From a virus (Duplodnaviria > Heunggongvirae > Uroviricota > Caudoviricetes): 64,000 nt of DNA. Location of the stretch: the IMG/VR virus record IMGVR_UViG_2854395284_000002, positions 27,638-91,637 of that record. One strand, given 5' to 3'. Both the position numbers and the translations under genes were made by a program. Under the pieces are notes generated by a model. That model was not told the DNA's origin. It saw nothing but the letters and a program-made list of their open reading frames with translations, and searched no databases. Below, piece by piece: positions 9,995 through 47,679 of the stretch (the stretch's first letter is position 1; every line of letters starts with the position of its first letter).

Positions 9995-10067
9995 TGGAGC
10001 TTGCATGACTTGAACATGCGACCGTCCAGTTATGAGCTGGATGCTCTCCCAACTGAGCTAAAGCTCC
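9995..10067 (-). tRNA. tRNA-Met (anticodon CAT; could be initiator/elongator or Ile-lysidine type)
   Basis: Minus-strand sequence GGAGCTTTAGCTCAGTTGGGAGAGCATCCAGCTCATAACTGGACGGTCGCATGTTCAAGTCATGCAAGCTCCA folds as a cloverleaf. It has a 7-bp acceptor stem, an AGCTCAGTTGGGAGAGC D-arm, a CTCATAA anticodon loop and a GTTCAAGTC T-arm. Confidence 0.75.
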
Positions 10068-10223
10068 TGGTTGCACCATAAAGCGAAGCCATGCACGACC
10101 TCCAATGGATTAGTCTTTCATAATACCTTTTCGCTACATTTAGTTGCACAAAACATACGATTTTTGTGTTGCGATATTCTTTTACTTCCAACTAAACAAA
10201 GTTGCATACTTCATGATGCTAAA

Positions 10224-10304
10224 TACTGACGGTGGGACTCGAACCCACATATCTGTGATCCTGGTGTTTGAAGCCAGTGCGTATGCCAATTCCGCCACGC
10301 CAGC
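10224..10304 (-). tRNA. type II tRNA, probably tRNA-Leu (anticodon CAA)
   Basis: Minus strand GCTGGCGTGGCGGAATTGGCATACGCACTGGCTTCAAACACCAGGATCACAGATATGTGGGTTCGAGTCCCACCGTCAGTA. T-arm GTGGGTTCGAGTCCCAC. Anticodon loop TTCAAAC (U33, anticodon CAA, A37) with a C-A mismatch at the stem base. Variable arm has a 3-bp stem ATC/GAT. Acceptor stem has two G-U pairs. Confidence 0.5.
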
Positions 10305-10460
10305 ATGTGTGCGATAGTTACTTCATCCGTTTAAGACATCTTCTAACGAGGATGCTGATCCAAACCCATCGCTTAAGTGATCAGTTTATTACAAGTGGAG
10401 GCTTGTATTGCGATACATGATAAGTTTTATGTCTTTCATGCTTGGACAATTATTTATTCT

Positions 10461-12801: not shown

Positions 12802-13620
12802 TTACTGTTTGTTATTTAGCCAATCTTTGTATGGTCTCAAAAGCTCTGTATATAGTTCTTCGTCAGTCATTCTGTTCATGTTTTTGACTGCGATAAATCC
12901 AGTGTTGTCACATTTTCTACCCTTCATATCATCCAGAGATCTCAGATAACTAAAATTCTCATTTCCAATGCCAACAAACTGTACAAACATATTGTAATTA
13001 GAAAGCTCTTTCACAATTTTATTTGTTTCGTCTGTATCCCAATTTTCACCATCTGTAATAAAAATGATAAATGCTGGAATTGTACTTGGCTCAATATCCT
13101 TATAATAGGAAACAATATCTTTCAAGACTGGAGCGTAATTAGTTCCACCCATACTCATATGAGAATTCATCATAATTTTTCGAACATAGTTCTTATAATT
13201 ATCAATTGTCACTGGTTTCAAAGAATCAAAATCATTTGAAAATAGCCAAGATTCTAACTCCCCATTATCATCAAATTTAAGAGCGATTGGCAAAAGTCTT
13301 GTAATTACATCTTGTACAGATCCGTTTCTAAAAAGATTACCCATACTTCCAGAGTAATCCATAGCGAGCGCAACCCTTGCTTGATGCTTAGTCATATCAA
13401 TTTTGCTTGATTTCGACATATTAATTAGCACATTATTTAAATTTTCTGCTGACTTAGACATATCAATTACAACTTGCTGCGCTGTATTTTCTTCATGTAC
13501 CACAGCGGATGTATTATCCGCCATAGTATTTGTTGTTGTAGTCTTTTTTCCAAAAAGTTTGTCAAATAGTCCCATGATTTTTATTCTCTCCTTTGATAAA
13601 TAATTTTCGAATAACATCAA
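12802..13620 (-). CDS. von Willebrand factor A (vWA) domain protein, TerY-like
   Basis: 272 aa. MIDAS motif AMDYSGSM and TDGE. N-terminal region has a TerD-like strand motif (VIDMSKS..INMSKSSKIDMTK). The true start is possibly the internal Met (MGLFDKLF, about 13575). Confidence 0.65.
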   Translation of the reverse strand: MMLFENYLSKERIKIMGLFDKLFGKKTTTTNTMADNTSAVVHEENTAQQVVIDMSKSAENLNNVLINMSKSSKIDMTKHQARVALAMDYSGSMGNLFRNGSVQDVITRLLPIALKFDDNGELESWLFSNDFDSLKPVTIDNYKNYVRKIMMNSHMSMGGTNYAPVLKDIVSYYKDIEPSTIPAFIIFITDGENWDTDETNKIVKELSNYNMFVQFVGIGNENFSYLRSLDDMKGRKCDNTGFIAVKNMNRMTDEELYTELLRPYKDWLNNKQ

Positions 13621-16177
13621 CCACGATTACAGTGAGTGATAGTCCAATGATTGCGATCCACTGACTCATATTCATTGCTGTTGCCTGGATAAGTCCGCCG
13701 AGTGCATTACATAAAGCAATAGTTCCAAGTACAATACCTGCTGCAATATATACAAATGTTTTATTGTTTTTCAGTCCATTGAGCAAATTAATATGTTCTG
13801 TACGAATACCAAATCCATTGCATACAGACATGATGCAAAGCATTGCAAATCTTGCAGTCATAGCTTCGACATCTGTTGTAAATAATTTTGATACTGGTGA
13901 AAACATAAGAATTCCATATAGTACAATAAATGTTACTGTGCTAATAGTAATTCGTTTCTTTGCACCTCGAATAAACAATCCAGAACCCTTCTTAATTGGA
14001 TTCTCTGTCATATATTCAGCTTTCGGAGGTTCCCCGCCAAATGACAATGAATTAAGTGAATCCATGATAATATTGATAATCAGAATCTGAACGGAAGCTA
14101 GTAATGCTCCGCCAGATAAAATAGGAAATAGAATACTTAAAACCAGAAGTGAAAAGTTGATTGGCAACTGAAACTCCAAAAACATCATGATATCGTGCAT
14201 AAATGTTCTACCAAGTTCCACGCCTCTAATAATACTTGCGAAGTTATTGTCTGTTAGAATAATATCGGATGCTTCTTTTGCAACATCTGTTCCAGCTTCC
14301 ATGCCAAAGCCTACATCCGCTTTCTTTAAAGCAGGAGAATCATTTGTCCCATCTCCCGTCATTCCAACAGATCTACCAAGCTCCTGTGCAAGACTTACAA
14401 GTCTAAGCTTTGTATTAGGAGAGCATCTGGAAATAACTCTAAGAGTTGGAATAATCTTCTTAATTTCATCATCAGACATTGCCTCGAACTGTGCATTTGT
14501 AAGAGCAAGATCCCCTTCTTTATAAATACAAGCTTCTGTCGCTACTGCTACTGCAGTCTCATGGCAATCACCAGTAATTTCAATAACTTGAATACCTGCT
14601 TCATGCGCAATCTGTACAGCCTGTGGAACTTCTTTTCTTACTGGATCAACGACGCCAATAATTCCTAGAAATACCATATCATCTGGTAATGTATTCTCAA
14701 CAATGTTCCCATTCGCCATCGCCAATGCGATGCAGCGCATGGATTTTTTCGTCATTGATTTGATAACATTTAAAAGTCTCTCTTTATCTTGTTTATTAAA
14801 CGCTACAGGCTCTGAAATTAACATTTTAGAACAATGTTCGATAAGTTTCTCTGGCGCACCTTTATAATAGGAAATTCCGCTCTCAGACGTACAGGAAGAG
14901 TACTTATATTCACTTTGAAATACCTGTTTCATAATAATTTTGTTGTTTTTCTGAATGTCAAAAAACTCAGTAAAATCAACGTATTTTAAGATTGCTCTGT
15001 CAATAGAGTTTCCGCCTGTGATATTATTCTCTGCATCATATGTGGCACTATTGTTCAAACAGATATTTTGTTTGATGCAATCCCAAAGATTAGTACCCTG
15101 ATCAACTTCATTGCCATATCCGTCAATGACAGTCGTAGGTGTCATAACTCCTGTTGTAAGAGTTCCTGTTTTGTCAGTACAAATTAGATCTACGTATGCA
15201 AGTTCTGGAATCTTGTTTGGATTTTTTGCAAGAATATTGAATCGTTCCATTGTCTTGACATTCTGTTTTGTAACAAGCTTGATAATTAATGGAAGTCCTT
15301 CTGGAACAGCAGCCACAATGATTGTTAGAGCAACCGAAATATTCTGTGCAATCTTTTGGATAACTTCTAGCACACCACCATTGATATATTCCCTGAATCC
15401 AATATGCGCAATATCCGTTACCATCAGTGCAATAAACGTGACGACTGCAGCAATCGTTCCATATCTCGAAATTGTATCACAAAGTTTATCGATCGCAATC
15501 TGAAGTGCTGTTTTAGGTGGCTCAAGTGTCTGCATTTTTACAAGTGTGTCACCATTTATGGTGTTTACGCCAACTTCGCCTACGATCATCTTTCCTTCGC
15601 CAGACAGAATCGTTGTTCCAGCAAATAAGCTATTTTGATTCGTAAAATCATCGGTGGATGTTGATTTTTTGTATACATAACCATTAATTGGAATTTTCTG
15701 ACATTCTTTACTTTCTCCGTTGATAGCAGCATTGCTTACAGAAATTTTACCCTCAATAATATATCCATCCGCGTAAATTTCCTGTCCAGTTCCAATACAA
15801 ACCACATCACCAACAACTAAATTATCTTTGTTGATTGTCTGAACTTGCCCATCTCTGATAACATCACAATACCTAGTTGATGTCTTTGCTCTTAGTTCTT
15901 GTGTTGATTTTTGAATACCAAGCGCCATTTTTACACCAATATATGTACATAATGAAATAACTAAAATCACCATGATTGGTTCTGAAAATGATGCCAATCC
16001 AAATACTGCAGCGAAAATCCCATATGCAGATAATGCTAATAACAGCATCAGCGTTTTATCACCAAAGATATTTTCAATCGCAAATTCATACCACTTTTTA
16101 AGTTTTGGTTCTGGTAGTTTGTTTGAGCCATATTTTTCCCGACTCATTTTTACTTGTTCGTTTGTTAGTCCTTTCAA
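13562..16177 (-). CDS. P-type cation-transporting ATPase, P2 (Ca2+-ATPase-like)
   Basis: 871 aa. Phosphorylation motif ICTDKTGTLT, plus TGDCHETA and TGDGTNDSPALKKADVGFGM. N-terminal LTNEQV..YGSNKL as in Ca/cation pumps. Ten predicted TM helices. Confidence 0.85.
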   Translation of the reverse strand: MKGLTNEQVKMSREKYGSNKLPEPKLKKWYEFAIENIFGDKTLMLLLALSAYGIFAAVFGLASFSEPIMVILVISLCTYIGVKMALGIQKSTQELRAKTSTRYCDVIRDGQVQTINKDNLVVGDVVCIGTGQEIYADGYIIEGKISVSNAAINGESKECQKIPINGYVYKKSTSTDDFTNQNSLFAGTTILSGEGKMIVGEVGVNTINGDTLVKMQTLEPPKTALQIAIDKLCDTISRYGTIAAVVTFIALMVTDIAHIGFREYINGGVLEVIQKIAQNISVALTIIVAAVPEGLPLIIKLVTKQNVKTMERFNILAKNPNKIPELAYVDLICTDKTGTLTTGVMTPTTVIDGYGNEVDQGTNLWDCIKQNICLNNSATYDAENNITGGNSIDRAILKYVDFTEFFDIQKNNKIIMKQVFQSEYKYSSCTSESGISYYKGAPEKLIEHCSKMLISEPVAFNKQDKERLLNVIKSMTKKSMRCIALAMANGNIVENTLPDDMVFLGIIGVVDPVRKEVPQAVQIAHEAGIQVIEITGDCHETAVAVATEACIYKEGDLALTNAQFEAMSDDEIKKIIPTLRVISRCSPNTKLRLVSLAQELGRSVGMTGDGTNDSPALKKADVGFGMEAGTDVAKEASDIILTDNNFASIIRGVELGRTFMHDIMMFLEFQLPINFSLLVLSILFPILSGGALLASVQILIINIIMDSLNSLSFGGEPPKAEYMTENPIKKGSGLFIRGAKKRITISTVTFIVLYGILMFSPVSKLFTTDVEAMTARFAMLCIMSVCNGFGIRTEHINLLNGLKNNKTFVYIAAGIVLGTIALCNALGGLIQATAMNMSQWIAIIGLSLTVIVVDVIRKLFIKGENKNHGTI

Positions 16178-27526: not shown

Positions 27527-27766
27527 TTATATTCTCTCATTCCATTTTCGAATTGCTTCGCATTTTGTTTTATCGTGTTCCTCTTCTTTTCTATAAGTAT
27601 CTACACTACACGTTCCGCCTCTAGCATGACACTTATTGCAAATCACAAAATATGCAACTTTCGAATATCTTGTCTTTTGACCAATTCTTAATTTAGTCCA
27701 CCCGCAGAACGGGCATGGTTTTAATTCTTTTTCTTTGATATTAATCATGTTTATCACTCCTATCAA
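27527..27766 (-). CDS. Lar-family restriction alleviation protein (zinc ribbon)
   Basis: 79 aa. LKPCPFCGW...CNKCHARG...AIRKWNER matches the Lar consensus (PCPFCG ... AWN-R). Confidence 0.55.
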   Translation of the reverse strand: MIGVINMINIKEKELKPCPFCGWTKLRIGQKTRYSKVAYFVICNKCHARGGTCSVDTYRKEEEHDKTKCEAIRKWNERI

Positions 27767-34313: not shown

Positions 34314-35414
34314 TTATAGTTCATAAATATCATTTCTTGTTTCACCGTCAGAATAATAAATATTCCATTCGTCAAATAATTCTTCTAACAATTTCATATC
34401 AACCGAATATTCATTACCGTGTGTGATAGCAATTGATTTCTTATCTCCGAATGTTCCAACATCTTTTTCACATCTATCGTATAATTCTTTTAAGTCTAAC
34501 ATTCCATATCTTAATGTATCCTGATGCGGATTTGGAATATTTGTTTTATCAAACATGTACGGATTGATTAAATATTTGTCGCATTCGCTAGGAAATTTTC
34601 CTGCTCCATGTCTTGTTAAATATGTACGAGATACATAACAGGTTTCAATATTGATATCATCAGCCCAGTTAGTATTTTCAATAATTTTCTTTGGATTTTT
34701 GATACCAGTATTTGATGGTGTAAGATGTGGAAAATAATCTGTATTATTCTGATCCAAAAGAAGCCCTTGTGCTGCTTCAAAGATAATATTATCAAAAACA
34801 TTTAAAAAATCATTTGTTTCCATTTCAACACTATGAATGTTCATAAAATCCCAGTCGTTCCAAAAATGATGAAAAATTCCATCGTCAAGAAATAACTTTT
34901 CCCACTTATAAGACAATGATATCTTCTCTTTTTCAAACTGCTTTATATAATAGTCTCTGATAGAAAAATTAACATTTATTACACCAGCTTTATATCTTTT
35001 TATTGTCTCAAAAATTCCAAGCCCACAGCTACCATGCTTGTCCTTTCCACGGCTTTCTTCAATGATCTGATTCGCCATCATATCCCAAGGTGTCGTAATC
35101 ATACAGTTTTTGTTGATATAAACTTCTGGTCGATATCCTAGATTGGTCAACTCATCATATTCCTGTTTGAAAATAATAGGATTTAAAATAAAATCTTCTG
35201 GCAGATATGTAGCTGCTCCATTAAATGTGCCAGATCCAAAATGATGAAAGACATGTCGAATGCCATCTGGTGACGTAACCGTATGTCCTCGTTGCGCTCC
35301 ACCATTAGAACATATAACAATACTATTTTTCTTTTGAGAAAAATAATTTGTTATCAACCCTTTTCCCTCGTCGCCAAACGATCCACCAATCACAATCTTA
35401 ATGTCTTTCATCAT
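34314..35414 (-). CDS. adenylosuccinate synthetase (PurA) family enzyme, short form; PurZ candidate
   Basis: 366 aa. IVIGGSFGDEGKGLITNYF (PurA P-loop GDEGKGK), NGGAQRGHTV (GGHNAGHT), FHHFGSG. It is about 60-70 aa shorter than canonical PurA. Confidence 0.7.
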   Translation of the reverse strand: MMKDIKIVIGGSFGDEGKGLITNYFSQKKNSIVICSNGGAQRGHTVTSPDGIRHVFHHFGSGTFNGAATYLPEDFILNPIIFKQEYDELTNLGYRPEVYINKNCMITTPWDMMANQIIEESRGKDKHGSCGLGIFETIKRYKAGVINVNFSIRDYYIKQFEKEKISLSYKWEKLFLDDGIFHHFWNDWDFMNIHSVEMETNDFLNVFDNIIFEAAQGLLLDQNNTDYFPHLTPSNTGIKNPKKIIENTNWADDINIETCYVSRTYLTRHGAGKFPSECDKYLINPYMFDKTNIPNPHQDTLRYGMLDLKELYDRCEKDVGTFGDKKSIAITHGNEYSVDMKLLEELFDEWNIYYSDGETRNDIYEL

Positions 35415-39695: not shown

Positions 39696-40426
39696 TCCCC
39701 TTCTGGATATTCATGATCAATTGCATTCATATTGATTAAACCTGCTTCTTTCATTCCAGAAAAATAGCATGTTTCATCTCCATCCTGAATTACTACATAT
39801 TTTTTGTTAGAAATAAACTCTTCTAATGTGATATTCTCTTTTTTTAAAAATCCACTAAGGATATCTTCATCCACAGAACCAGTATCTGGAATATTGAATC
39901 TCCAGGATTCATTTTCTGAATCAGTCCAATAATTAATTTCAATTCCATATTGTTCTTCTTTGTCAGAAAGAAACTTGTTTAACTCTTCTTCCGTCATTCC
40001 TTCCTGGTAATAATTGTCTGCATTATATTCTTCGTTATCTTTATTCGGAATATATTTACATTTTTTTGGAAGTTCAATTTTCTTTAATGTCGGCACATAT
40101 TTCTTAACAATTCGTAATAATTCTTTATATGTATCATCATTATATTCTTCAACCAACGAAGCACAAGCATATAGCCATTTATCAGAAAAACTTGCTAATG
40201 CCCTAAATGGAGATCTTCCAAAATATAAATCTTCCTCATATGGTATCCAAATACAATTTTTCTCTCCTGTTTTTGAATCATCCCATAACCACATATCATG
40301 AGTAATTTCTTGTGGAGTATATTTACCTTCATTTTTCATCACGCAAAGCGAATGCATACTTGATGAATTTGATTCAAACACACCCATTCTAATTTGAGTT
40401 TTCATATTTTCTTTTCTCCTATTCAA
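39680..40426 (-). CDS. hypothetical protein, paralog B (MKTQIRMGVFESNSSSMHSL family)
   Basis: 248 aa. Shares the conserved N-terminal block with 39285..39695. Its C-terminus is divergent. Confidence 0.45.
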   Translation of the reverse strand: MNRRKENMKTQIRMGVFESNSSSMHSLCVMKNEGKYTPQEITHDMWLWDDSKTGEKNCIWIPYEEDLYFGRSPFRALASFSDKWLYACASLVEEYNDDTYKELLRIVKKYVPTLKKIELPKKCKYIPNKDNEEYNADNYYQEGMTEEELNKFLSDKEEQYGIEINYWTDSENESWRFNIPDTGSVDEDILSGFLKKENITLEEFISNKKYVVIQDGDETCYFSGMKEAGLINMNAIDHEYPEGEWWER

Positions 40427-40730
40427 AAATACAAATCATACCATTATTATCGACACCTGAAGTCTCATCAAAATAAATATAGGGCCATGAAATCCCTGAA
40501 ATAACGTCAAAATTCATATCATGTATAGCAATTTCTTTATCACCATATTTCTCCATCGCTTTCTGTAGTAGTTCGATAAAATCCGAAATTTTATATACAT
40601 TGTCTTTATCGAATGTCAACGCTTTTGTTATATGTCCATCAAGACATTCGAAATCTTCCTCGATAATCTTATTCATCCATATCTCCTCTACAAATTTTAT
40701 TAGCATTTTCTTTACCGTACACAACTTCAT
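40419..40730 (-). CDS. hypothetical protein
   Basis: 103 aa ORF. The start probably lies at an internal Met. Confidence 0.35.
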   Translation of the reverse strand: MKLCTVKKMLIKFVEEIWMNKIIEEDFECLDGHITKALTFDKDNVYKISDFIELLQKAMEKYGDKEIAIHDMNFDVISGISWPYIYFDETSGVDNNGMICIFE

Positions 40731-40947
40731 CGGCCAGTTTTCGAGAAATACGACTAACCTGCTTTAATCCCTCTCTGATAATTGTTCCGCTTGGCTGCTG
40801 ATGATCTTTGATAAATCCGATCCACTGATCTTCGTTTAGAATGTTTCTTTCACTTTCATATACTACTGCATAGCCTAGTTCCCGTTTTGCAAGGCAAAGT
40901 GTGTTGATCATGCAGTCGATATCATCTAATACATCTTTAATCGGCAT
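40669..40947 (-). CDS. hypothetical protein
   Basis: 92 aa ORF. Confidence 0.4.
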   Translation of the reverse strand: MPIKDVLDDIDCMINTLCLAKRELGYAVVYESERNILNEDQWIGFIKDHQQPSGTIIREGLKQVSRISRKLADEVVYGKENANKICRGDMDE

Positions 40948-41112
40948 TGGTTTTTGTCCTCTCTTTATGTAAATAGTTATATGTTTCTATGTAAGATTAT
41001 TCTCCTATGATCCGTTTATAAAAAGCGTTCTACAATTTATATTCTTAATAGGTTAGAATTGATTGTAGAACGCTCATGATGGTGAATTGTTGTGGTTATT
41101 TTAGAATGCAAA

Positions 41113-41907
41113 TCAGTCTAAATATGATTTCAGACCACTTTCAAAATATGGAATTGGTCTTCTCTTGAATCTGTATTTTTCAACCCTTGCATCGATAATA
41201 GCTTTTACTGCAGCATCATCAATTTCACCTGTTCTTGCATACCGATCGAATACAGAATATTTAAATCCAAGAGCGCTTTCATCAGAAGATCCACATAATC
41301 CGTCTGACGGCGTTTTGTCAACCATCTTTTTCAGTAGAATCGTCTCATATCCAATAGCTTTTACTTCCTGTACTGTGAAATCCTTTAATGGTGCAAAGTC
41401 TCCTACTGCATCGCCCCAGCGAGTTTCCCAAGATAAGAGTGTTTCCGAAAGATTGCATGTATTAGCAACTCGTCCATTCATACTCTGTGAAATTGCATAA
41501 AGTGTTGCCATTCTGATTCGAGGAGGCAGATTAATTGATGTCTGTTTTGACCAATGATCACCAATTTGTGGTCTGATTTCGTGCTTTAGCGCAAGAATTG
41601 CTGGATGAATATCTACAGTACAGTATTCAATACCTAAATGTTTAGCAACTTCATAGGCATCTTCAATATCTGTCTGTTCTCCGTCTGGCATGAGCACACC
41701 TAAAACTCTATTCTTTCCAAGAGCTTCCACACAGAGAGCCGCAACAATGCTTGAATCTTTACCCCCTGAAAGACCTACTGTGGCAATACAATCTTTCCCA
41801 TTCTGCTCAAAGAACATTTTAATCCACTCGACAATCTTATTTTTTGTTTCTTTTGCATCAAAAGTATACATATCTATTCTCCTCTCCTTTACTGATTTAA
41901 TTTCCAC
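41113..41907 (-). CDS. nadE: NH3-dependent NAD+ synthetase (PP-loop ATP pyrophosphatase)
   Basis: 264 aa. PP-loop VGLSGGKDSS (SGGxDS). The size and layout match single-domain NadE. Confidence 0.8.
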   Translation of the reverse strand: MEIKSVKERRIDMYTFDAKETKNKIVEWIKMFFEQNGKDCIATVGLSGGKDSSIVAALCVEALGKNRVLGVLMPDGEQTDIEDAYEVAKHLGIEYCTVDIHPAILALKHEIRPQIGDHWSKQTSINLPPRIRMATLYAISQSMNGRVANTCNLSETLLSWETRWGDAVGDFAPLKDFTVQEVKAIGYETILLKKMVDKTPSDGLCGSSDESALGFKYSVFDRYARTGEIDDAAVKAIIDARVEKYRFKRRPIPYFESGLKSYLD

Positions 41908-42407
41908 AGTTCAACATGAGTATCAAGTTCATTAAAAATCTTCTGTATCATTGAATATACTTCGTCCCAATCTGCTCCACCACGATCACAGCCGATCTTA
42001 TATGGCATAGCAATTGTTGCACTAAAATTATTGTTCCTTTCATGTGCTTTCCAACACATAGTTCTAAAACACTTTTCTAATGCTTCCAGAGAAGTATATT
42101 GTTTTCCGTCATATCCATAGTTATCTTGTGCAAAGAAATTACAAATCCACTGTTCATTACTTGGAATTGCAATCGATCCACAGTCGTATCCAATATATTT
42201 TGGCTTGACTGGTACAATTTGTACTTTCCCCAGCATATCCGATGATGCTACCTTTTTATATTCTTCGTATACATGTGGAAATCGCTGTCTGACCTGCAAA
42301 GCCACGCCAGATCCCATCTTTCCCATACAATTTACCTGATGACAAATAAATTTTGCATCCGTATCAAATAAATTTCCTTCGATAATTTCAATCATGATTT
42401 TCTCCAT
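41889..42407 (-). CDS. macro domain protein (ADP-ribose / Appr-1-pp binding or hydrolase)
   Basis: 172 aa. N-terminal IIEGNLFDTDAKFICHQVNCMGKMGSGVALQV matches the macro-domain binding-loop pattern (vNaaN...G.GGGVa.aI). Confidence 0.65.
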   Translation of the reverse strand: MEKIMIEIIEGNLFDTDAKFICHQVNCMGKMGSGVALQVRQRFPHVYEEYKKVASSDMLGKVQIVPVKPKYIGYDCGSIAIPSNEQWICNFFAQDNYGYDGKQYTSLEALEKCFRTMCWKAHERNNNFSATIAMPYKIGCDRGGADWDEVYSMIQKIFNELDTHVELWKLNQ

Positions 42408-43860
42408 TTAGTCTTTCACGAATCTCTTCAAAAGTCTGTTCTTTTACTAATTCTCCATCTTTAAAGACGAGTTTCAGTTCATTTTCTTCTGGCATTGTAT
42501 CTTCTGCATAACCATCATGACACACGAATTTATTTTCTTCTTTTACTACACAGCAAAGTCCTTTATGAGATTTCTTCAGATTATTTTTATCTGTTTTTGG
42601 ATTCTTCTGAATGGTATATTCTTTGCCATCAATTACACAATAAGTGCTCTTCATTGCAAATCCAAAAGTATCTCTTGTTAAGCAAACCATTCCATCTTCT
42701 GGCGTACACATTGCAGAGAAAGAAAACGCACCTACTCCAAAAAGAATCGCATCTGCTGCAAATCCTAATCCTTCAAGCTGTGTCCAAATCTCTTTGATCT
42801 TACTGTACTGACAACCATCTCCGTAAATGATTCCAATCTTTGGATTTAACTCCTTATAACCTTTTGAGTTTACAGTTCCACCAAAAATCTGATATAATTT
42901 CTGAACAGTTTTTACTGAAATTTCAACGATATCGCCGCTATCAGGACGTACAAGGAATTTGCCATTATGCTCTTCGATTTCTTTTCTCAGTTTTGGAAGT
43001 GTTTCGTCAATAAGGTTCCAGTAATCAAATGTATCAGAGACATAACTGAAAGATGTATTCTTATATGTATCAGTCAGTAATCTTCTTAACAGATTTTCTT
43101 CTGTCTCGCATACAGCCAGATTACTGCATACGGTTGCATGTTCCAGGCTAACTGCTCCAATACCAATATGGTTCTTAGCACAATCAGCATCGTACATTTT
43201 ATCAATATACTGAGTTGCAGGAATTGTAGAAGTTTTATTGAAAGATAGCAGCCATGAAGAACTTGCATGAACTCCGTTCTCAATGCCGAGTCCTCTGAAT
43301 CCAAAATCCGCCATAGCCATTGCAGGATTAGCACCATCTGTAGTTTTCTCGTAAAATTCATTTGCAAGTGTTTTATATTTATGACCTACAGTTGCCCAGT
43401 TGCATGTCCCAAAAATAAAAGACTGCATAATGCATTCCAGCCATTGTACCGTCCATGCGAAATCTGGATGTGCGTTACTCATCTCGATACACGGGACTCC
43501 CATTGTTACAACAGATCCTTCTGGAAGAGCTTTGATCTCTACAGGTAAATACTGCAGATCCCATAATTTTTCGATACGTCCAAGATCATAACTCTGAGAA
43601 CCGATCTGATTATCCAGATATTCTTTATATTCTGCAATAACTTCTTTTTTTGGTCTTTTGAAGAAAGTTTCATTTGCTAAATCAATCATATATTCCTTAA
43701 TAAAACCCTGTAATCCAAAGAATACAACTTCATTCAGATTTTTGAACATTGATTTTCTAGGAGTAATATAAGAAGTTAATTTTGTAAGACCCTTTGGAAG
43801 AGCATCAGGATTTGTATTTTTATATGTATCTGCCATCAGCATAAAAGAAATGTTTCTCAT
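42388..43860 (-). CDS. Nampt/NAPRT-family phosphoribosyltransferase (Nampt or Namat-type)
   Basis: About 490 aa from the ATG at 43860 (RBS GGAGGTC; the listed ORF starts further upstream at 43947 and overlaps prs). LMADTYKNTNP and ADFGFRGLGIENG match the Nampt N-terminal TDSYK motif and the FGFRGVSS motif. Confidence 0.75.
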   Translation of the reverse strand: MRNISFMLMADTYKNTNPDALPKGLTKLTSYITPRKSMFKNLNEVVFFGLQGFIKEYMIDLANETFFKRPKKEVIAEYKEYLDNQIGSQSYDLGRIEKLWDLQYLPVEIKALPEGSVVTMGVPCIEMSNAHPDFAWTVQWLECIMQSFIFGTCNWATVGHKYKTLANEFYEKTTDGANPAMAMADFGFRGLGIENGVHASSSWLLSFNKTSTIPATQYIDKMYDADCAKNHIGIGAVSLEHATVCSNLAVCETEENLLRRLLTDTYKNTSFSYVSDTFDYWNLIDETLPKLRKEIEEHNGKFLVRPDSGDIVEISVKTVQKLYQIFGGTVNSKGYKELNPKIGIIYGDGCQYSKIKEIWTQLEGLGFAADAILFGVGAFSFSAMCTPEDGMVCLTRDTFGFAMKSTYCVIDGKEYTIQKNPKTDKNNLKKSHKGLCCVVKEENKFVCHDGYAEDTMPEENELKLVFKDGELVKEQTFEEIRERLNGENHD

Positions 43861-43861
43861 T

Positions 43862-44692
43862 TTAGACCTCCATAACTGTGATTTTATCGTGTTTTCCTGT
43901 GAAAAGACTGTCTGTTGTAAATAATCTTTCAACTGTTCCATCTTCAAGTGATTTGATTAATGTTCCTTTTTCTCTATCAAGAACTGAATTTTCGGTATGT
44001 GATGCATAAGCATAAATTCTATCTACACCACGTTCTTTCAACGCTTTTGCACTATAATATAAAGAACCGCCATATGAAATGATGTCATCAATCATCAAAA
44101 CTTTTTTACCTTTAAGATCAATATCGTTATCTCTGATTTTGAGTCCAAGAATTTTTCCTGTATTCCAATCTCGATTTTTCTCACCATAGCAATACGGAAT
44201 GTCAGAAAACAATCCAGAATATCTTTTCGAACTGCCGGCATCCGGAAAATAAAGAATAAGATTTTCTTTACTAATCTGCTCAATTACTTCATCAATATAT
44301 TCTCTTGGATTAAAAACATATACTCTATTCAAAAGCGCTGCTCCAACATTACTATGAACATCAAGTACCTCTACTCTATCAAATTCGAGCCAATTAATAA
44401 CATCAGAGAACCCTTTTAATGTAAAAACCTCGCCCTGATCATGGATTCTGTCCATTCTGGCATTCGGAAGATAAAACATTGTAAGATCAATTGATTTAAT
44501 ATATGGAAAATTTTTTAAATGTTTTGTAATATAAATCAGCGCTGAAAGTTCTTCTTCTTTCTCATACTTCCATGTAATGTTGTTATATTTCTGATAAAAA
44601 CAATCGTCTAATACGATTCTCTGTGTTCCATCTGGAAAGTGTTCTACTTTTACTTCTTTCCCATTTAAAATGATCATATCTTTATTCTCCAA
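43862..44692 (-). CDS. ribose-phosphate pyrophosphokinase family enzyme (Prs or ADPR-pyrophosphate synthetase Adps type)
   Basis: 276 aa. HFPDGTQ (Prs FSDGE) and the PRPP-binding loop GKKVLMIDDIISYGGSLYYSAKALKERG. Its stop lies 1 nt before the ATG of the Nampt-family gene. Confidence 0.8.
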   Translation of the reverse strand: MENKDMIILNGKEVKVEHFPDGTQRIVLDDCFYQKYNNITWKYEKEEELSALIYITKHLKNFPYIKSIDLTMFYLPNARMDRIHDQGEVFTLKGFSDVINWLEFDRVEVLDVHSNVGAALLNRVYVFNPREYIDEVIEQISKENLILYFPDAGSSKRYSGLFSDIPYCYGEKNRDWNTGKILGLKIRDNDIDLKGKKVLMIDDIISYGGSLYYSAKALKERGVDRIYAYASHTENSVLDREKGTLIKSLEDGTVERLFTTDSLFTGKHDKITVMEV

Positions 44693-45194
44693 TCACATTA
44701 ATCTGGCAGCTTTTCATGGCTTCGAGTGCCGCCTTATGTTTTTCTGGTGTAGATCCCGCGCAACAGCCTGCGTCTACTGTAATTTCCGTATTTGGAAACA
44801 TAGCTTTAAGGACTAATGCATTTGAAATTACACATATATCCGTACACAAACCGACCAGATCGATATCACCATCTCCAATCCATGTCATATTTCTCCACTG
44901 CAAAGTTCCAAAAGTACTTTTGTTTACATATTTGCAGTTAGGAACCTCAATGTCGCTCACAACCTTCCATCCTCTTGTTCCAAAAACACAATGTTTTACT
45001 GGAAGTTTTCTTCCCTCCAGAGTATTTAAGTAATCGTCATAATGCGTATCTCTTGTAAAAATAATTTGATCTCCACGATTATAATACTCTTCAATTTTCT
45101 TTTTCACATTCGGAATAATCGCCTGTGCTTCTTCCGATCCAAGGCTACCATTTACGAAATCATTCTGCACATCTACTACAATTAAAGTTCTCAT
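44682..45194 (-). CDS. isochorismatase-family hydrolase, nicotinamidase (PncA)-like
   Basis: 170 aa. LIVVDVQNDF and GLCTDICV are the catalytic Asp and Cys blocks of PncA-type enzymes. Confidence 0.65.
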   Translation of the reverse strand: MRTLIVVDVQNDFVNGSLGSEEAQAIIPNVKKKIEEYYNRGDQIIFTRDTHYDDYLNTLEGRKLPVKHCVFGTRGWKVVSDIEVPNCKYVNKSTFGTLQWRNMTWIGDGDIDLVGLCTDICVISNALVLKAMFPNTEITVDAGCCAGSTPEKHKAALEAMKSCQINVIGE

Positions 45195-45397
45195 TGTTTA
45201 TTCTCCTCTCTTACTTCGTCAAATCTCTTTACCCAGTCCTCAAATGACACATCGTCTCCCACTGTGCCATCGTATTTACACATCCAATATAGAGTTTTCT
45301 TTCTCTCGTATTCCAAGTCATCTCTTAAATTATGAATAATTGACTGAGCAAAATCTTTCATGTGATTGTATTCGCTTTTTAAGACTAATCCAAACAT
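45191..45397 (-). CDS. hypothetical small protein
   Basis: 68 aa ORF. Confidence 0.35.
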   Translation of the reverse strand: MFGLVLKSEYNHMKDFAQSIIHNLRDDLEYERKKTLYWMCKYDGTVGDDVSFEDWVKRFDEVREENKQ

Positions 45398-45777
45398 TAA
45401 ATTTCCTCTTTATCTTCTGCAAGTTTATTCCAGACACTTGCAATTTCTGACATCACTTCTTCTACGGTTTTGCCATCCGTTGAAATTCCTAATCTATCAA
45501 GATATTCCTTTAATTCAGACATCGTGTTTTCCATTATTTTTTTCTCACTTTCCAAAATTTTAGTAATCGTTACTAATTTCTAATTTCGATTCTTTTTCGA
45601 ATCTATCTACATATTCTCTGACACGTTCGTATGCTGCAGGAACACTAATATGTTCTTTCAGTAAAAGTTCTTCTACAGCTGCTCGTTCAATAAGAATTTT
45701 TCGATCGTGTTCTTCTTGCGTCATAATAATCACCTTATAAGTTTGGCTGACCAGTTTTATACCAGCCAGCCATTTTT

Positions 45778-46158
45778 TTAATCTAATTCACCAAGCATTT
45801 TCTGCAAATCTTCAACGGACGCATTTCGAAGTGCCTCGTCCTGCTTAGTAGCAATGATCTGCATAATTTTCTGTTTCTTCTCTTTACGTTCTGCAGCTTC
45901 CTGCCGATTCTTTTTCTCTTCCAGTTTCTCATTAAAGATATATTTTACAATCTCAATCTTGGTCGCAAGAATATCATCTTCCTCGGATTTGGTCTGAAGC
46001 AGACTTTCTTCATCCGTCTTCTTTACTTCTGCATTCAGCGTCTTAAACACTGTATCCAGCGATCCAAGCGGAAGATCATATAAATCTTCTACTACAATCT
46101 GTCCCTTATACGGGAAACGATATTTACCTTTTACTGCTTTTTCAAACATATTACTCAT
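45778..46158 (-). CDS. hypothetical coiled-coil protein
   Basis: 126 aa ORF. Confidence 0.4.
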   Translation of the reverse strand: MSNMFEKAVKGKYRFPYKGQIVVEDLYDLPLGSLDTVFKTLNAEVKKTDEESLLQTKSEEDDILATKIEIVKYIFNEKLEEKKNRQEAAERKEKKQKIMQIIATKQDEALRNASVEDLQKMLGELD

Positions 46159-46176
46159 AATATTATTCTCCTTTCT

Positions 46177-47679
46177 TTACGCTGCATTTCCATTTTTAAC
46201 AAGATAATTCTCAAAATCACGCTTCATGAATCTGAAATTCACCCCCTGGTTGGAACTATATTCATCATCAGCACTCTGATATTCTCCGATCCACTGTTCA
46301 AATTCCTGATCTTGATTGTTCTGTGCTGCGTAAACCATAAGTGCAATTAATGCAGTTTTACACTGCTGATATACATTCACTGATACTTTTGTATCCTGAA
46401 GACATTCGTTATAAAATTCGATATCTTGCGGATCTACTTTTTCGTTTACATGCGTATGTACAAAATCAATATCATTTTGATCAATACTATCGTCAACGCC
46501 AATAATCTCAGGTTCTTCGTTTGCGGAAATTTCCGATGATTCTTTAGTACTTTCACACTCAATATCTTCATTAGTATTATTCTCTTCGATATGTAAAAAT
46601 TTCACTAACAATGTATGTAAATAGTCAATTTTCTGCCGAATCACTTTTTTATCTTTTGTATGCTTGTCTTGCTCAATCTCGATCCAGTCCGTATCATTTA
46701 CTTTGACTTCTTTCATATCATTAAAAGCTAACAGGAATTTTCCAAAATCTTCTACTGAAATTCCTTCATCCAAAGCTTTTTTCATGAGTGCTAACCATGC
46801 CATAAAATCTTTTGATACAAACAATTCTGCAACCTCTGTATGATCGAGTTTATCTGCATAAGGAATTAACATATTAAAATATTTATCCAGTGTATCAAAT
46901 TCTTCCGTCATTGCATTTTCATTGAGGAATTTACATATATCTCTTGGAGCCTTCTTCCATTCTTCCAAATGAAACATAGCCATGACACATTCGATAATTA
47001 CTCTTTCCCAAATTCCTTTCTTTTTATCTAATTCATTCAGCATTGTGCAATCTTTAAGAAAGCGATTTTTGTCTTTGATCTGTTTAACTCTATCAGCAAA
47101 TGTGCCAATATAAGTAAAAGCTTTCTGACTTACGTTCATTGGAATGGTTGAGTTGTATAACATAACCAAATCGCAAGTATCTTCTGGTGTACATTCCTGG
47201 TAAATTGCGGCAGATAACTGACATGATCTCATTCTCTTTTTTAACTCAGGAGGGAAATCATTGTACGTTTTGTTTACCAAATCAAATGTTTTTATTTCTT
47301 TAATCAGTTTCCCATTTTCATCTCTTATTGGCTTCCCGTTTTTGTCCAATTTATTTCCCTGATATGTTACGTATCTGTTCCGGATTGATTTAGAAATTTT
47401 ATGTCCATCAAAGATAAATCGTCTTAAGGCTTCTGTTCTCTGTCCACCATCTACCACATATGTGACAGTAATTCCATCCTCTCTTTTTTCTTCTGCAAGA
47501 ATAATATTTGGAATATAAATCCGTTTCTGAGATACAGTGCTGTAAATCAAATTATTGATCATCTCATTTGACCAGCAAAATGCTCTCTGAACCGCCTGAT
47601 CAACAGTGATGGTTTCTTCATCAACACTATCAACATAAGCTCCTACACCCATCTGTTCGATTCTGTATTCGTCTAACAT
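46177..47679 (-). CDS. DUF262 (ParB/sulfiredoxin-fold, GmrSD N-terminal-like) domain protein
   Basis: 500 aa. AVQRAFCWSNEMINNLIYST...YIPNIIL...YVVDGGQRTEAL matches the DUF262 DGQQR core. Acidic C-terminus. No HNH/DUF1524 module seen. Confidence 0.55.
   Translation of the reverse strand: MLDEYRIEQMGVGAYVDSVDEETITVDQAVQRAFCWSNEMINNLIYSTVSQKRIYIPNIILAEEKREDGITVTYVVDGGQRTEALRRFIFDGHKISKSIRNRYVTYQGNKLDKNGKPIRDENGKLIKEIKTFDLVNKTYNDFPPELKKRMRSCQLSAAIYQECTPEDTCDLVMLYNSTIPMNVSQKAFTYIGTFADRVKQIKDKNRFLKDCTMLNELDKKKGIWERVIIECVMAMFHLEEWKKAPRDICKFLNENAMTEEFDTLDKYFNMLIPYADKLDHTEVAELFVSKDFMAWLALMKKALDEGISVEDFGKFLLAFNDMKEVKVNDTDWIEIEQDKHTKDKKVIRQKIDYLHTLLVKFLHIEENNTNEDIECESTKESSEISANEEPEIIGVDDSIDQNDIDFVHTHVNEKVDPQDIEFYNECLQDTKVSVNVYQQCKTALIALMVYAAQNNQDQEFEQWIGEYQSADDEYSSNQGVNFRFMKRDFENYLVKNGNAA

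Follow-up and report, generated by a model that had tools for sequence, protein, structure and literature searches.

In the NAD+ reconstitution pathway NARP1, from ADP-ribose (ADPR) and ATP, the enzyme Adps makes ADPR pyrophosphate (ADPR-PP), and Namat joins ADPR-PP with nicotinamide to give NAD+ (bioRxiv 10.1101/2024.02.11.579819; PMC12774641; PMC13586617). A Poa1p-like macro domain protein, Adpp, is added by 15% of NARP1 phages; it is an ADPR-1''-phosphate phosphatase that counters the RES-domain defence aRES, and the arrangement Adps–Adpp macro phosphatase–Namat, for which Osterman et al. give Vibrio phage Gary, is named NARP1-AP (bioRxiv 10.64898/2026.01.28.702374). In bacteria, NrtR proteins repress NAD genes, with ADPR as the strongest anti-repressor of the two members tested, and the operons concerned include nrtR-pncA-pncB-nadD-nadE in Clostridium acetobutylicum and nrtR-prs-nadV in gamma-proteobacteria such as Shewanella and Acinetobacter (PMC2330246). 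Here, we analyzed a 64,000-nucleotide stretch of viral DNA (hereafter the window; positions 27,638 to 91,637 of IMG/VR record IMGVR_UViG_2854395284_000002), in which Adps, Namat-like and macro domain genes share an operon with genes for a nicotinamidase (PncA) and an NAD synthetase (NadE). Three of these five genes belong to an already described system, NARP1-AP, while the PncA and NadE flanks and a remodeled transferase are the new part. We favor, if by a modest measure of belief, the reading of the module as a NARP1-type NAD+ reconstitution operon that has been extended and runs via deamidated intermediates.

The first-pass annotation of the window had placed five contiguous, translationally coupled genes acting on NAD+ or ADPR at 41113-45194. 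Five co-directional, coupled open reading frames (ORFs) are indeed present there on the minus strand, and their domains and junctions agree with that description. In order of transcription (PncA, Adps, Namat, macro, NadE), they are:

44682..45194, minus strand: PncA-type nicotinamidase, 170 aa, the first gene (Isochorismatase PF00857, 2e-27)

43862..44677, minus strand (ORF open to TTG 44692): Adps-type kinase resembling phosphoribosyl pyrophosphate (PRPP) synthetase (PRPS), 271 aa (phrog_619 'ribose-phosphate pyrophosphokinase', 4e-61)

42388..43860, minus strand: Namat-like transferase of a variant clade (hereafter variant Namat), 490 aa (NAPRTase and NAMPT_N; phrog_448, 3e-147)

41889..42395, minus strand (alternative start 42407): macro domain protein, 168 aa (Macro PF01661; phrog_335 'phosphatase', 7e-45)

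41113..41871, minus strand: NadE of the NH3 type, 252 aa (NAD_synthase PF02540, 5e-46; TIGR00552, 151 bits)

The junctions, read from the sequence, measure 4 nt, 1 nt, an 8-nt overlap and 17 nt. The PncA stop codon TAA (44684-44682) is followed after 4 nt by the Adps ATG at 44677, and the Adps stop stands 1 nt from the Namat ATG at 43860, a spacing that had been noticed in the first-pass annotation, with a GGAGG ribosome-binding site. The Namat stop TGA (42390-42388) is overlapped by the macro ATG at 42395 (ATGATTGA), and the macro stop TAA is followed by a strong ribosome-binding site (AAGGAGAGGAG) and the NadE ATG at 41871. A GGAG-type site precedes every start, within or directly after the preceding gene. 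Three starts were moved on the basis of homologue alignments and ribosome-binding sites: Adps to ATG 44677, macro to ATG 42395, and NadE to ATG 41871 instead of GTG 41907. For Adps, ATG 44677 is the likely true start and TTG 44692 is less favored, because homologues start MI(K/L)xNG. Promoter and terminator scans of 40400-46300 gave no enrichment compared with shuffled sequences, and the operon boundaries were not callable.

An Adps/Namat pair had been preferred in the first-pass annotation over a Nampt-family enzyme working with a nicotinamide mononucleotide (NMN) adenylyltransferase, since no such adenylyltransferase was recognizable. Both points hold, the first also by family scores. Domain scans of the five genes and their neighbors gave no cytidylyltransferase-type or NadM/NadR-type match, and the NadD model matched none of ~160 related loci, including all loci that combine Adps with variant Namat. 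The absent adenylyltransferase rules out a NARP2 reading, and NARP3 (PnuC plus NadR) is not relevant, as neither family is present. The comparison of the 490-aa protein with Nampt and Namat, which that annotation had proposed, places it closest to Namat both by sequence and by structure model. The best PDB sequence match is the Namat of SPbetaL1 (9W5X, 2e-98; 39% identity), with human NAMPT at ~1e-40, and the predicted model (pLDDT 84) has 9W5X and 9W5W as its best folds at a TM score of 0.88, followed by NadV and NAMPT.

The pyridine pocket of this transferase is altered. At the positions of D215, G213, A242 and H187 of SPbetaL1 Namat, the window protein carries Ser211, Lys209, Ser238 and Ala183. 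In SPbetaL1 Namat, D215 hydrogen-bonds the amide of nicotinamide, and the D215A substitution lowers NAD+ output 8.1-fold (PMC12774641). The equivalent residue of human NAMPT, D219, is described as setting substrate specificity; D219S is listed as a mutation to 'switch the substrate affinity' and D219A as inactivating (PMC7096376, PMC9322656, PMC4919578). Furthermore, mutations at H191, G217 and A244 of human NAMPT block inhibitor binding and give inhibitor resistance (PMC4919578), and these resistance sites fit a picture in which one region of the pocket is lined by all four switched residues.

To place the window protein, we drew on IMG/VR and GenBank for 169 unique Namat-like proteins, of which 87, the window's included, are variant and 82 canonical. 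No sequence is intermediate between these two classes. The canonical class has H187, G213, D215 and A242 (Asp at 215 in 81/82, Glu in the other one), whereas the variant class has A/S/G187, K/N213, S/A215 and S242, with Ser at position 215 in 81 members and Ala in 6. On the other hand, the core residues D13, Y15, F189, R192, H245, R306, D308, R399 and D400 are invariant in both classes; all are present in the window protein, and they are kept in 86–87 of the 87 variant members. The K/S/S pattern also recurs in 117/117 of the closest full-length relatives in a collection of 5.8 billion proteins.

The SCH clamp motif differs as well. In the window protein it reads G-A-F-S-F-S-[AMCTPEDGMV]-C-L-T-R-D, with 21 residues instead of 11 (a 10-aa insertion, modeled partly at low confidence), and the published Namat SCH motif as written is not matched. 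The aromatic residue equivalent to F392 (position 3 of the motif) is kept, while the Y396 equivalent is Val or Cys; Phe392 and the aromatic residue at clamp position 394 are invariant throughout the variant clade. Could the insertion itself be the trait tied to PncA and NadE? Members from Phage Phass-1 and Clostridium tagluense, which have the D215A/A242S switch together with PncA and NadE, have no SCH insertion, and this rules the idea out. Therefore, it is the pyridine-pocket switch, and not the clamp insertion, that travels with PncA and NadE.

The gene neighborhoods divide along the same line. The counts cover unique proteins whose genes have 4.5 kb or more of sequence on either side. Around variant Namat in IMG/VR, PncA, Adps and NadE were all present in 57/57 loci and a macro gene in 46/57; in bacterial and archaeal genomes, the corresponding counts were 39/43 and 11/43. 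Around canonical Namat in IMG/VR, the three-gene combination was found in 0/55 loci, although Adps was present in 55/55 and a macro gene in 8/55. NadD or PncB was found in none of the three sets, and neither PncA nor NadE occurred in any of the 55 canonical, Asp-type viral loci, which bears out the first-pass remark that NadE and the nicotinamidase exceed the minimal two-gene pathway. The few viral variant loci that seem to have no NadE stop at a contig edge just before the NadE site of close relatives.

Because the gene set recurs in all 57 well-flanked IMG/VR loci of the variant clade, the five-gene arrangement is not a product of chance. The association holds at 44–100% identity within the viral set and down to 35–40% identity to the window protein in the genome set, and it is independent of both the macro gene and the SCH insertion. 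It is also found across different gene orders: PncA first, PncA last, Namat-NadE-PncA-Adps, Adps-PncA-Namat-NadE, and dispersed with intervening genes. The clade is common in gut metagenomes, where one 90%-identity cluster has 684 member sequences.

Sister gut phages carry another cassette at the same locus, PncA-(two unknown genes)-PncB-NadD-NadE (L019:5995-10279; also L021 and L026–L029). Their PncA and NadE are 64% and 55% identical to those of the window and occupy the same flanking positions. Their PncB is bona fide (TIGR01514, 408 bits vs. 270) and has a NadD-like adenylyltransferase alongside, so that the four genes are predicted to form a complete Preiss-Handler pathway; this set may itself be an undescribed phage route of NAD+ restoration. 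Since the sister phages keep PncA and NadE around PncB and NadD, Adps and variant Namat fill the slot of PncB and NadD, whose joint product is nicotinate adenine dinucleotide (NaAD). A near-identical phage (L018:6001-9234) has PncA together with a split PncB, and a zinc-finger-rich protein of 493 aa, where the window has its other four genes.

Could the module rebuild NAD+ by way of nicotinate? The remodeled Namat pocket, together with the flanking nicotinamidase and NAD synthetase, suggests so. A host NADase effector of the TIR, SIR2 or SEFIR type would split NAD+ into ADPR and nicotinamide, after which PncA would deamidate nicotinamide to nicotinate and NH3 and Adps would make ADPR-PP from ADPR and ATP. 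Variant Namat would then join nicotinate and ADPR-PP directly into NaAD, and the NH3-dependent NadE would turn NaAD into NAD+ with ammonia from PncA. The macro domain protein, acting as Adpp, would convert the ADPR-1''-phosphate left by RES-type NAD+ phosphorylases into ADPR, which would enter at the Adps step. Adps and variant Namat would stand in for PncB and NadD of the Preiss-Handler pathway. The NH3 released by PncA is what a NadE of the NH3 type needs, which speaks for this route. In the first-pass annotation, one option was that NAD+ is rebuilt from ADPR and nicotinamide via ADPR-PP. The enzyme families fit the ADPR-PP part, but nicotinate is probably the pyridine substrate, and ADPR-PP plus nicotinamide to NAD+ is probably not the reaction here, because the window protein is without the nicotinamide-binding Asp and departs from the published SCH motif. 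A literature search of incomplete coverage, which is no proof of unpublished status, found no report in which nicotinate, NaAD, NadE or a nicotinamidase is connected with NARP1, Namat or ADPR-PP.

The first gene fits the step assigned to it. PncA scores 96.8 bits with PF00857, and its best solved relative is the pyrazinamidase/nicotinamidase of P. horikoshii (1IM5, 4e-13). The alignment with 1IM5 keeps Asp8 (VVDVQNDF), D49-x-H51, xHC (His67), and the Lys and Cys (LCTDICV) motifs, which we take to be the nicotinamidase Asp/Lys/Cys triad and Asp/His/His metal site. It is classed as a putative divergent member of the nicotinamidase family because it stays under the cut-off of the NCBIfam equivalog NF008623 (30.6 vs. 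174).

Several points weigh against the nicotinate route. We infer all of its substrates and products, and the counter-defence role in this phage, from gene identities, family placement, residue switches and co-occurrence that are themselves observed. The variant clade looks monophyletic, and therefore the co-variation may go back to a single ancestral event or a few of them, together with linkage, and not to repeated selection. The canonical set behind the neighborhood comparison was retrieved with patterns that forced A242 (ATEHSVM) and DFS[MY]RGM, D215 not being forced, and a few bacterial variant loci have no Adps or NadE nearby. The NAMPT D219S switch is reportedly towards nicotinic acid in the work of Khan et al. 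from 2006, while the review table that lists the mutation names only a switch in affinity. The members with Ala215 resemble the D219A and D215A mutants, which are inactive or weak with nicotinamide. As for PncB, a first hhalign comparison with the variant Namat profile aligned the C-terminus alone (probability 17%); with a richer profile and greedy alignment, the Ser of PncB 'FVGTSN' falls on Namat D215 (probability 79%), an alignment of moderate confidence that leaves the A242 equivalent unplaced. The adenine clamp of the variant class is altered too (R40 to M in most members, Y396 to V/C, and mostly an SCH insertion of 9–11 aa), so that the ribosyl donor could also be different. Finally, the nicotinate route costs one ATP more than NARP1, and its advantages are speculative: gut Clostridia may depend on the deamidated route, making nicotinate the pyridine at hand; charged nicotinate may stay in the cell better than nicotinamide; and immune NADases may act less well on NaAD.

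The rival explanation that survives best, although we regard it as unlikely, is NARP1-AP with two helpers: variant Namat would use nicotinamide, and PncA and NadE would push leftover nicotinamide through host PncB and NadD as a parallel NAD+ supply. Hosts generally have NadD and often PncB, the published pathway of three genes has its counterparts here in the Adps, macro and Namat-like genes, the catalytic core of the transferase is intact, and the full PncA-PncB-NadD-NadE set of the sister phages shows that these phages do boost Preiss-Handler flux. What such helpers leave unexplained is the amide-binding Asp, which is replaced in all PncA/NadE-linked members and in none otherwise, and whose loss in D215A cuts nicotinamide-dependent NAD+ synthesis 8-fold in a verified Namat. 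Furthermore, a nicotinamide-dependent Namat, its gene lying two places downstream, would lose its substrate to the phage PncA.

Another explanation turns on the kinase. The comparison with Prs and Adps, also proposed in the first-pass annotation, comes out on the side of Adps. The window protein lies below every curated PRPS cut-off, and the verified SPbetaL1 Adps behaves alike: with TIGR01251 (cut-off 113), they score 89.6 and 106, respectively, and the window protein reaches 85 vs. 296 with NF002095 and 22.7 vs. 27 with Pfam Pribosyl_synth. It scores 150–162 bits against SPbetaL1 Adps (38% identity) and 62 against E. coli Prs, whereas the verified Adps enzymes of SPbetaL1 and ICP1 score 89–96 bits mutually and each ~60 against E. 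coli Prs. It also keeps the ICP1 Adps residues F18, R87, H121, D161, the catalytic K185, D212 and D213; its hairpin K-x-R-D-x-x-T-G-x-I is of the Adps type, and the C-terminal module is lost relative to Prs. By these marks, the Prs-like protein is predicted to be of the Adps type, within the span of verified Adps enzymes and outside curated PRPS. On the curated cut-offs and the bracketing by verified Adps enzymes, we reject a PRPS reading of the gene.

A PRPP-based Preiss-Handler route would require just that reading: the Prs-like protein would make PRPP, variant Namat would be a nicotinate phosphoribosyltransferase giving nicotinate mononucleotide (NaMN), host NadD would adenylate it, and NadE would finish. 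To our knowledge, NadD is universal in bacteria, and the pocket changes, which point to nicotinate, are silent on the ribosyl donor; both suit this route, as does the partly degenerate adenine clamp with its R40 and Y396 replacements and insertion. In addition, verified Namat retains PRPP activity (PMC12774641), and nrtR-prs-nadV operons have long been interpreted in this way (PMC2330246). Nevertheless, we consider it quite doubtful, given the Adps-like scores, hairpin and C-terminal features of the kinase and the invariant aromatic residues at clamp positions 392 and 394. The macro protein of the ADPR-1''-phosphate phosphatase type, present in 46 of the 57 well-flanked viral modules, would feed ADPR, not ribose 5-phosphate, and phage modules with a true PncB carry a NadD-like gene, whereas modules with Adps and variant Namat carry none.

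The macro domain protein invites an explanation of its own, namely that it is a DNA ADP-ribosyl glycohydrolase like DarG, which would undo DNA ADP-ribosylation of the DarT type, and is merely located in the operon. Its best solved match is the DarG macrodomain 5M31 (9e-12), followed by Poa1p (6LFQ, 8e-5) and TARG1 (1e-4), and its best NCBIfam match is the DarG model NF048014 (E 1.8e-21). That match, however, reaches 76.8 against a cut-off of 250 and covers model positions 1–147 of 338, the macro domain alone; DarG antitoxin identity was judged unlikely on account of this score and the unmatched C-terminal part of the model. The protein is also homologous (28.5% identity, E 4e-18) to the 'phosphatase' encoded between Adps and Namat in Vibrio phage K406, whose Adps-macro-Namat operon has the NARP1-AP layout; in the window, the macro gene sits between Namat and NadE. 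With macro genes inside the NAD modules of most variant viral loci and with Poa1p and TARG1 also matched, we hold the DarG explanation to be very improbable. The macro protein, of the Poa1p/TARG1/DarG class, is probably an Adpp. The first-pass annotation had it remove ADPR-derived immune signals or process ADPR 1''-2'' cyclic phosphate (Appr>p), and this gives way to the phosphatase role published for such operons.

NadE passes TIGR00552 (151.4 vs. 63.65) and is a single domain with no glutaminase domain. That it might be an NMN synthetase converting NaMN into NMN, with a host NMN adenylyltransferase needed to complete the pathway, is suggested by its short, ~250-aa type and by its second-best solved relative, 3FIU (1e-22), which we take to be a Francisella NadE with NaMN preference, but this is hardly credible given that the best relative is the P. 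horikoshii NadE (2E18, 2e-31), that the general nadE model is passed, and that no NMN adenylyltransferase accompanies the module anywhere, so that in the phage this route would stop short of NAD+.

The module also occurs outside phages: genomes of Lachnospiraceae, Oscillospiraceae and other gut anaerobes commonly have it, and an NrtR-family regulator is adjacent in ~30/76 bacterial loci and in none of the viral loci. In Lachnotalea glycerini DSM 28816 (L305:5629-11375), PncA-Adps-Namat-NadE(glutamine type)-NrtR, with Namat of the variant kind, lies among ordinary chromosomal genes, flanked by cellulose-binding and protease genes. In Clostridia, the module thus appears to serve the cell itself as an operon for NAD/ADPR recycling and is not a phage tool alone, and the action of ADPR as an NrtR anti-repressor fits an operon that consumes ADPR. 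The first-pass annotation had taken the Prs–Nampt pairing as a signature of phage pathways; the reconstitution module stands, but it is not phage-specific. A Peptococcaceae metagenome-assembled genome from termite gut (L289:3426-8578) has NrtR, a Tpt1/KptA-like protein (identified by eye on the basis of its N-terminal sequence), a MacroD-like macro protein, PncA, Adps and variant Namat, an operon that would couple a maker of ADPR 1''-2'' cyclic phosphate with the recycling module.

Among published phages, the gut phage Phass-1 (genetic code 15; predicted host Clostridia) carries the same module (L230, OQ749652.1: 96860-101298). Its transferase has Arg213, Ala215 and Ser242, and its five genes are annotated as nicotinamidase, ribose-phosphate pyrophosphokinase, nicotinamide phosphoribosyltransferase and two hypothetical proteins.

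Taking the phage and bacterial loci together, we see as evenly balanced between right and wrong the fuller proposal that variant Namat is a nicotinate:ADPR-PP ADP-ribosyltransferase and that PncA-Adps-Namat-NadE forms a fourth, deamidated pathway, which would serve as a housekeeping operon near NrtR in Clostridia and other gut anaerobes and would have been captured by gut phages, often with Adpp, against NAD+-depleting immunity. If true, direct NaAD synthesis from ADPR-PP and nicotinate would be a new reaction and a new branch of the phage–bacteria NAD+ arms race, and chemistry of the NARP1 type would be matched by a cellular version in Clostridia beside regulators of the NrtR family, whose tested members are ADPR-responsive. 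The residue classes also give a rule for annotation: Asp/Glu at SPbetaL1 position 215 with Ala242 marks the nicotinamide type, and Ser/Ala215 with Ser242 marks the PncA/NadE-linked type. Such a rule is useful since these genes are now labeled nicotinamide or nicotinate phosphoribosyltransferases, as in Phass-1. Considering its abundance, the clade may influence the way in which gut phages deal with defences of the Thoeris, SIR2 and RES types.

The window itself comes from a large uncultured phage, as indicated by its near-identity to IMG/VR viral contigs of 100–216 kb. A DNA-level search of GenBank phages returned three weak matches only and no close cultured relative. The carrier is probably a gut jumbo phage of roughly 200 kb with Clostridia as hosts. 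The GC content is low (~33%), the coding is almost wholly on the minus strand, and the replication genes include a RecJ-like exonuclease, a primase, a DnaB-like helicase and a Sak4-like protein. Other features of the window are as follows:

9995-10067 and 10223-10305, minus strand: genes for tRNA-Met(CAT) and tRNA-Leu(CAA)

13562-16177, minus strand: P-type cation-transporting ATPase of 871 aa (E1-E2_ATPase, Cation_ATPase_N and _C; phrog_12316), an unusual phage cargo

33794-34375, minus strand: YpsA/SLOG-family protein adjoining the PurZ-like gene

34314-35414, minus strand: PurZ-like adenylosuccinate synthetase homologue (phrog_1211 '2-aminooxy adenylosuccinate synthetase', 1.6e-66; PF00709, 4e-33), which might mean 2-aminoadenine (Z base) in the phage DNA

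38365-39261, minus strand: radical SAM protein (phrog_16999 'Fe-S oxidoreductase'), downstream of the module

46177-47679, minus strand: protein of 500 aa whose N-terminal domain is of the GmrSD_N (DUF262) nuclease type, ~1 kb upstream of the module

50283-51560, minus strand: IS110-family transposase (DEDD_Tnp_IS110 and Transposase_20) in the sole GC-rich bin (44% vs. ~33%), apparently an insertion sequence that has entered the genome of the phage

How does the module compare with the known systems? Like NARP1-AP, it holds in one operon a PRPS-like Adps, a Namat-like enzyme and a macro protein of the Poa1p/TARG1 class, and the expected function is the same rebuilding of NAD+ from ADPR or ADPR-1''-phosphate after immune cleavage. 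It differs from NARP1-AP in the Ser211 that replaces Asp in the transferase, the nearby Lys, Ser and Ala, the 10-aa SCH insertion, and the PncA and NadE flanks. With NARP1 of SPbetaL1, ICP1 and Bas63, it has in common an Adps gene translationally coupled to an adjacent Namat-like gene, an Adps that keeps its catalytic Lys and its acceptor residues, and the Namat core; unlike NARP1, it has a remodeled pyridine pocket and adenine clamp and three further enzymes. NARP2 (Nampt/NadV plus NMN adenylyltransferase, as in Vibrio phage KVP40) similarly restores NAD+ with a Nampt-family enzyme, whereas the window has no adenylyltransferase, an Adps-type partner, and a transferase nearer to Namat than to NadV or NAMPT. 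The nrtR-prs-nadV operons, compared by description, likewise join a Prs paralogue to a Nampt-family gene under an ADPR-responsive NrtR, but are without pncA and nadE (PMC2330246). Finally, the Preiss-Handler operon of C. acetobutylicum (PMC2330246) and its phage copies (L019, L021, L026–L029) also have PncA as the first enzyme and NadE as the last, and the bacterial versions of the window module adjoin NrtR as well. Where that operon has PncB and NadD, however, the window module has Adps and variant Namat, with or without the macro gene, and the ribosyl-adenylate part of NAD+ would come from ADPR and not from PRPP and ATP.

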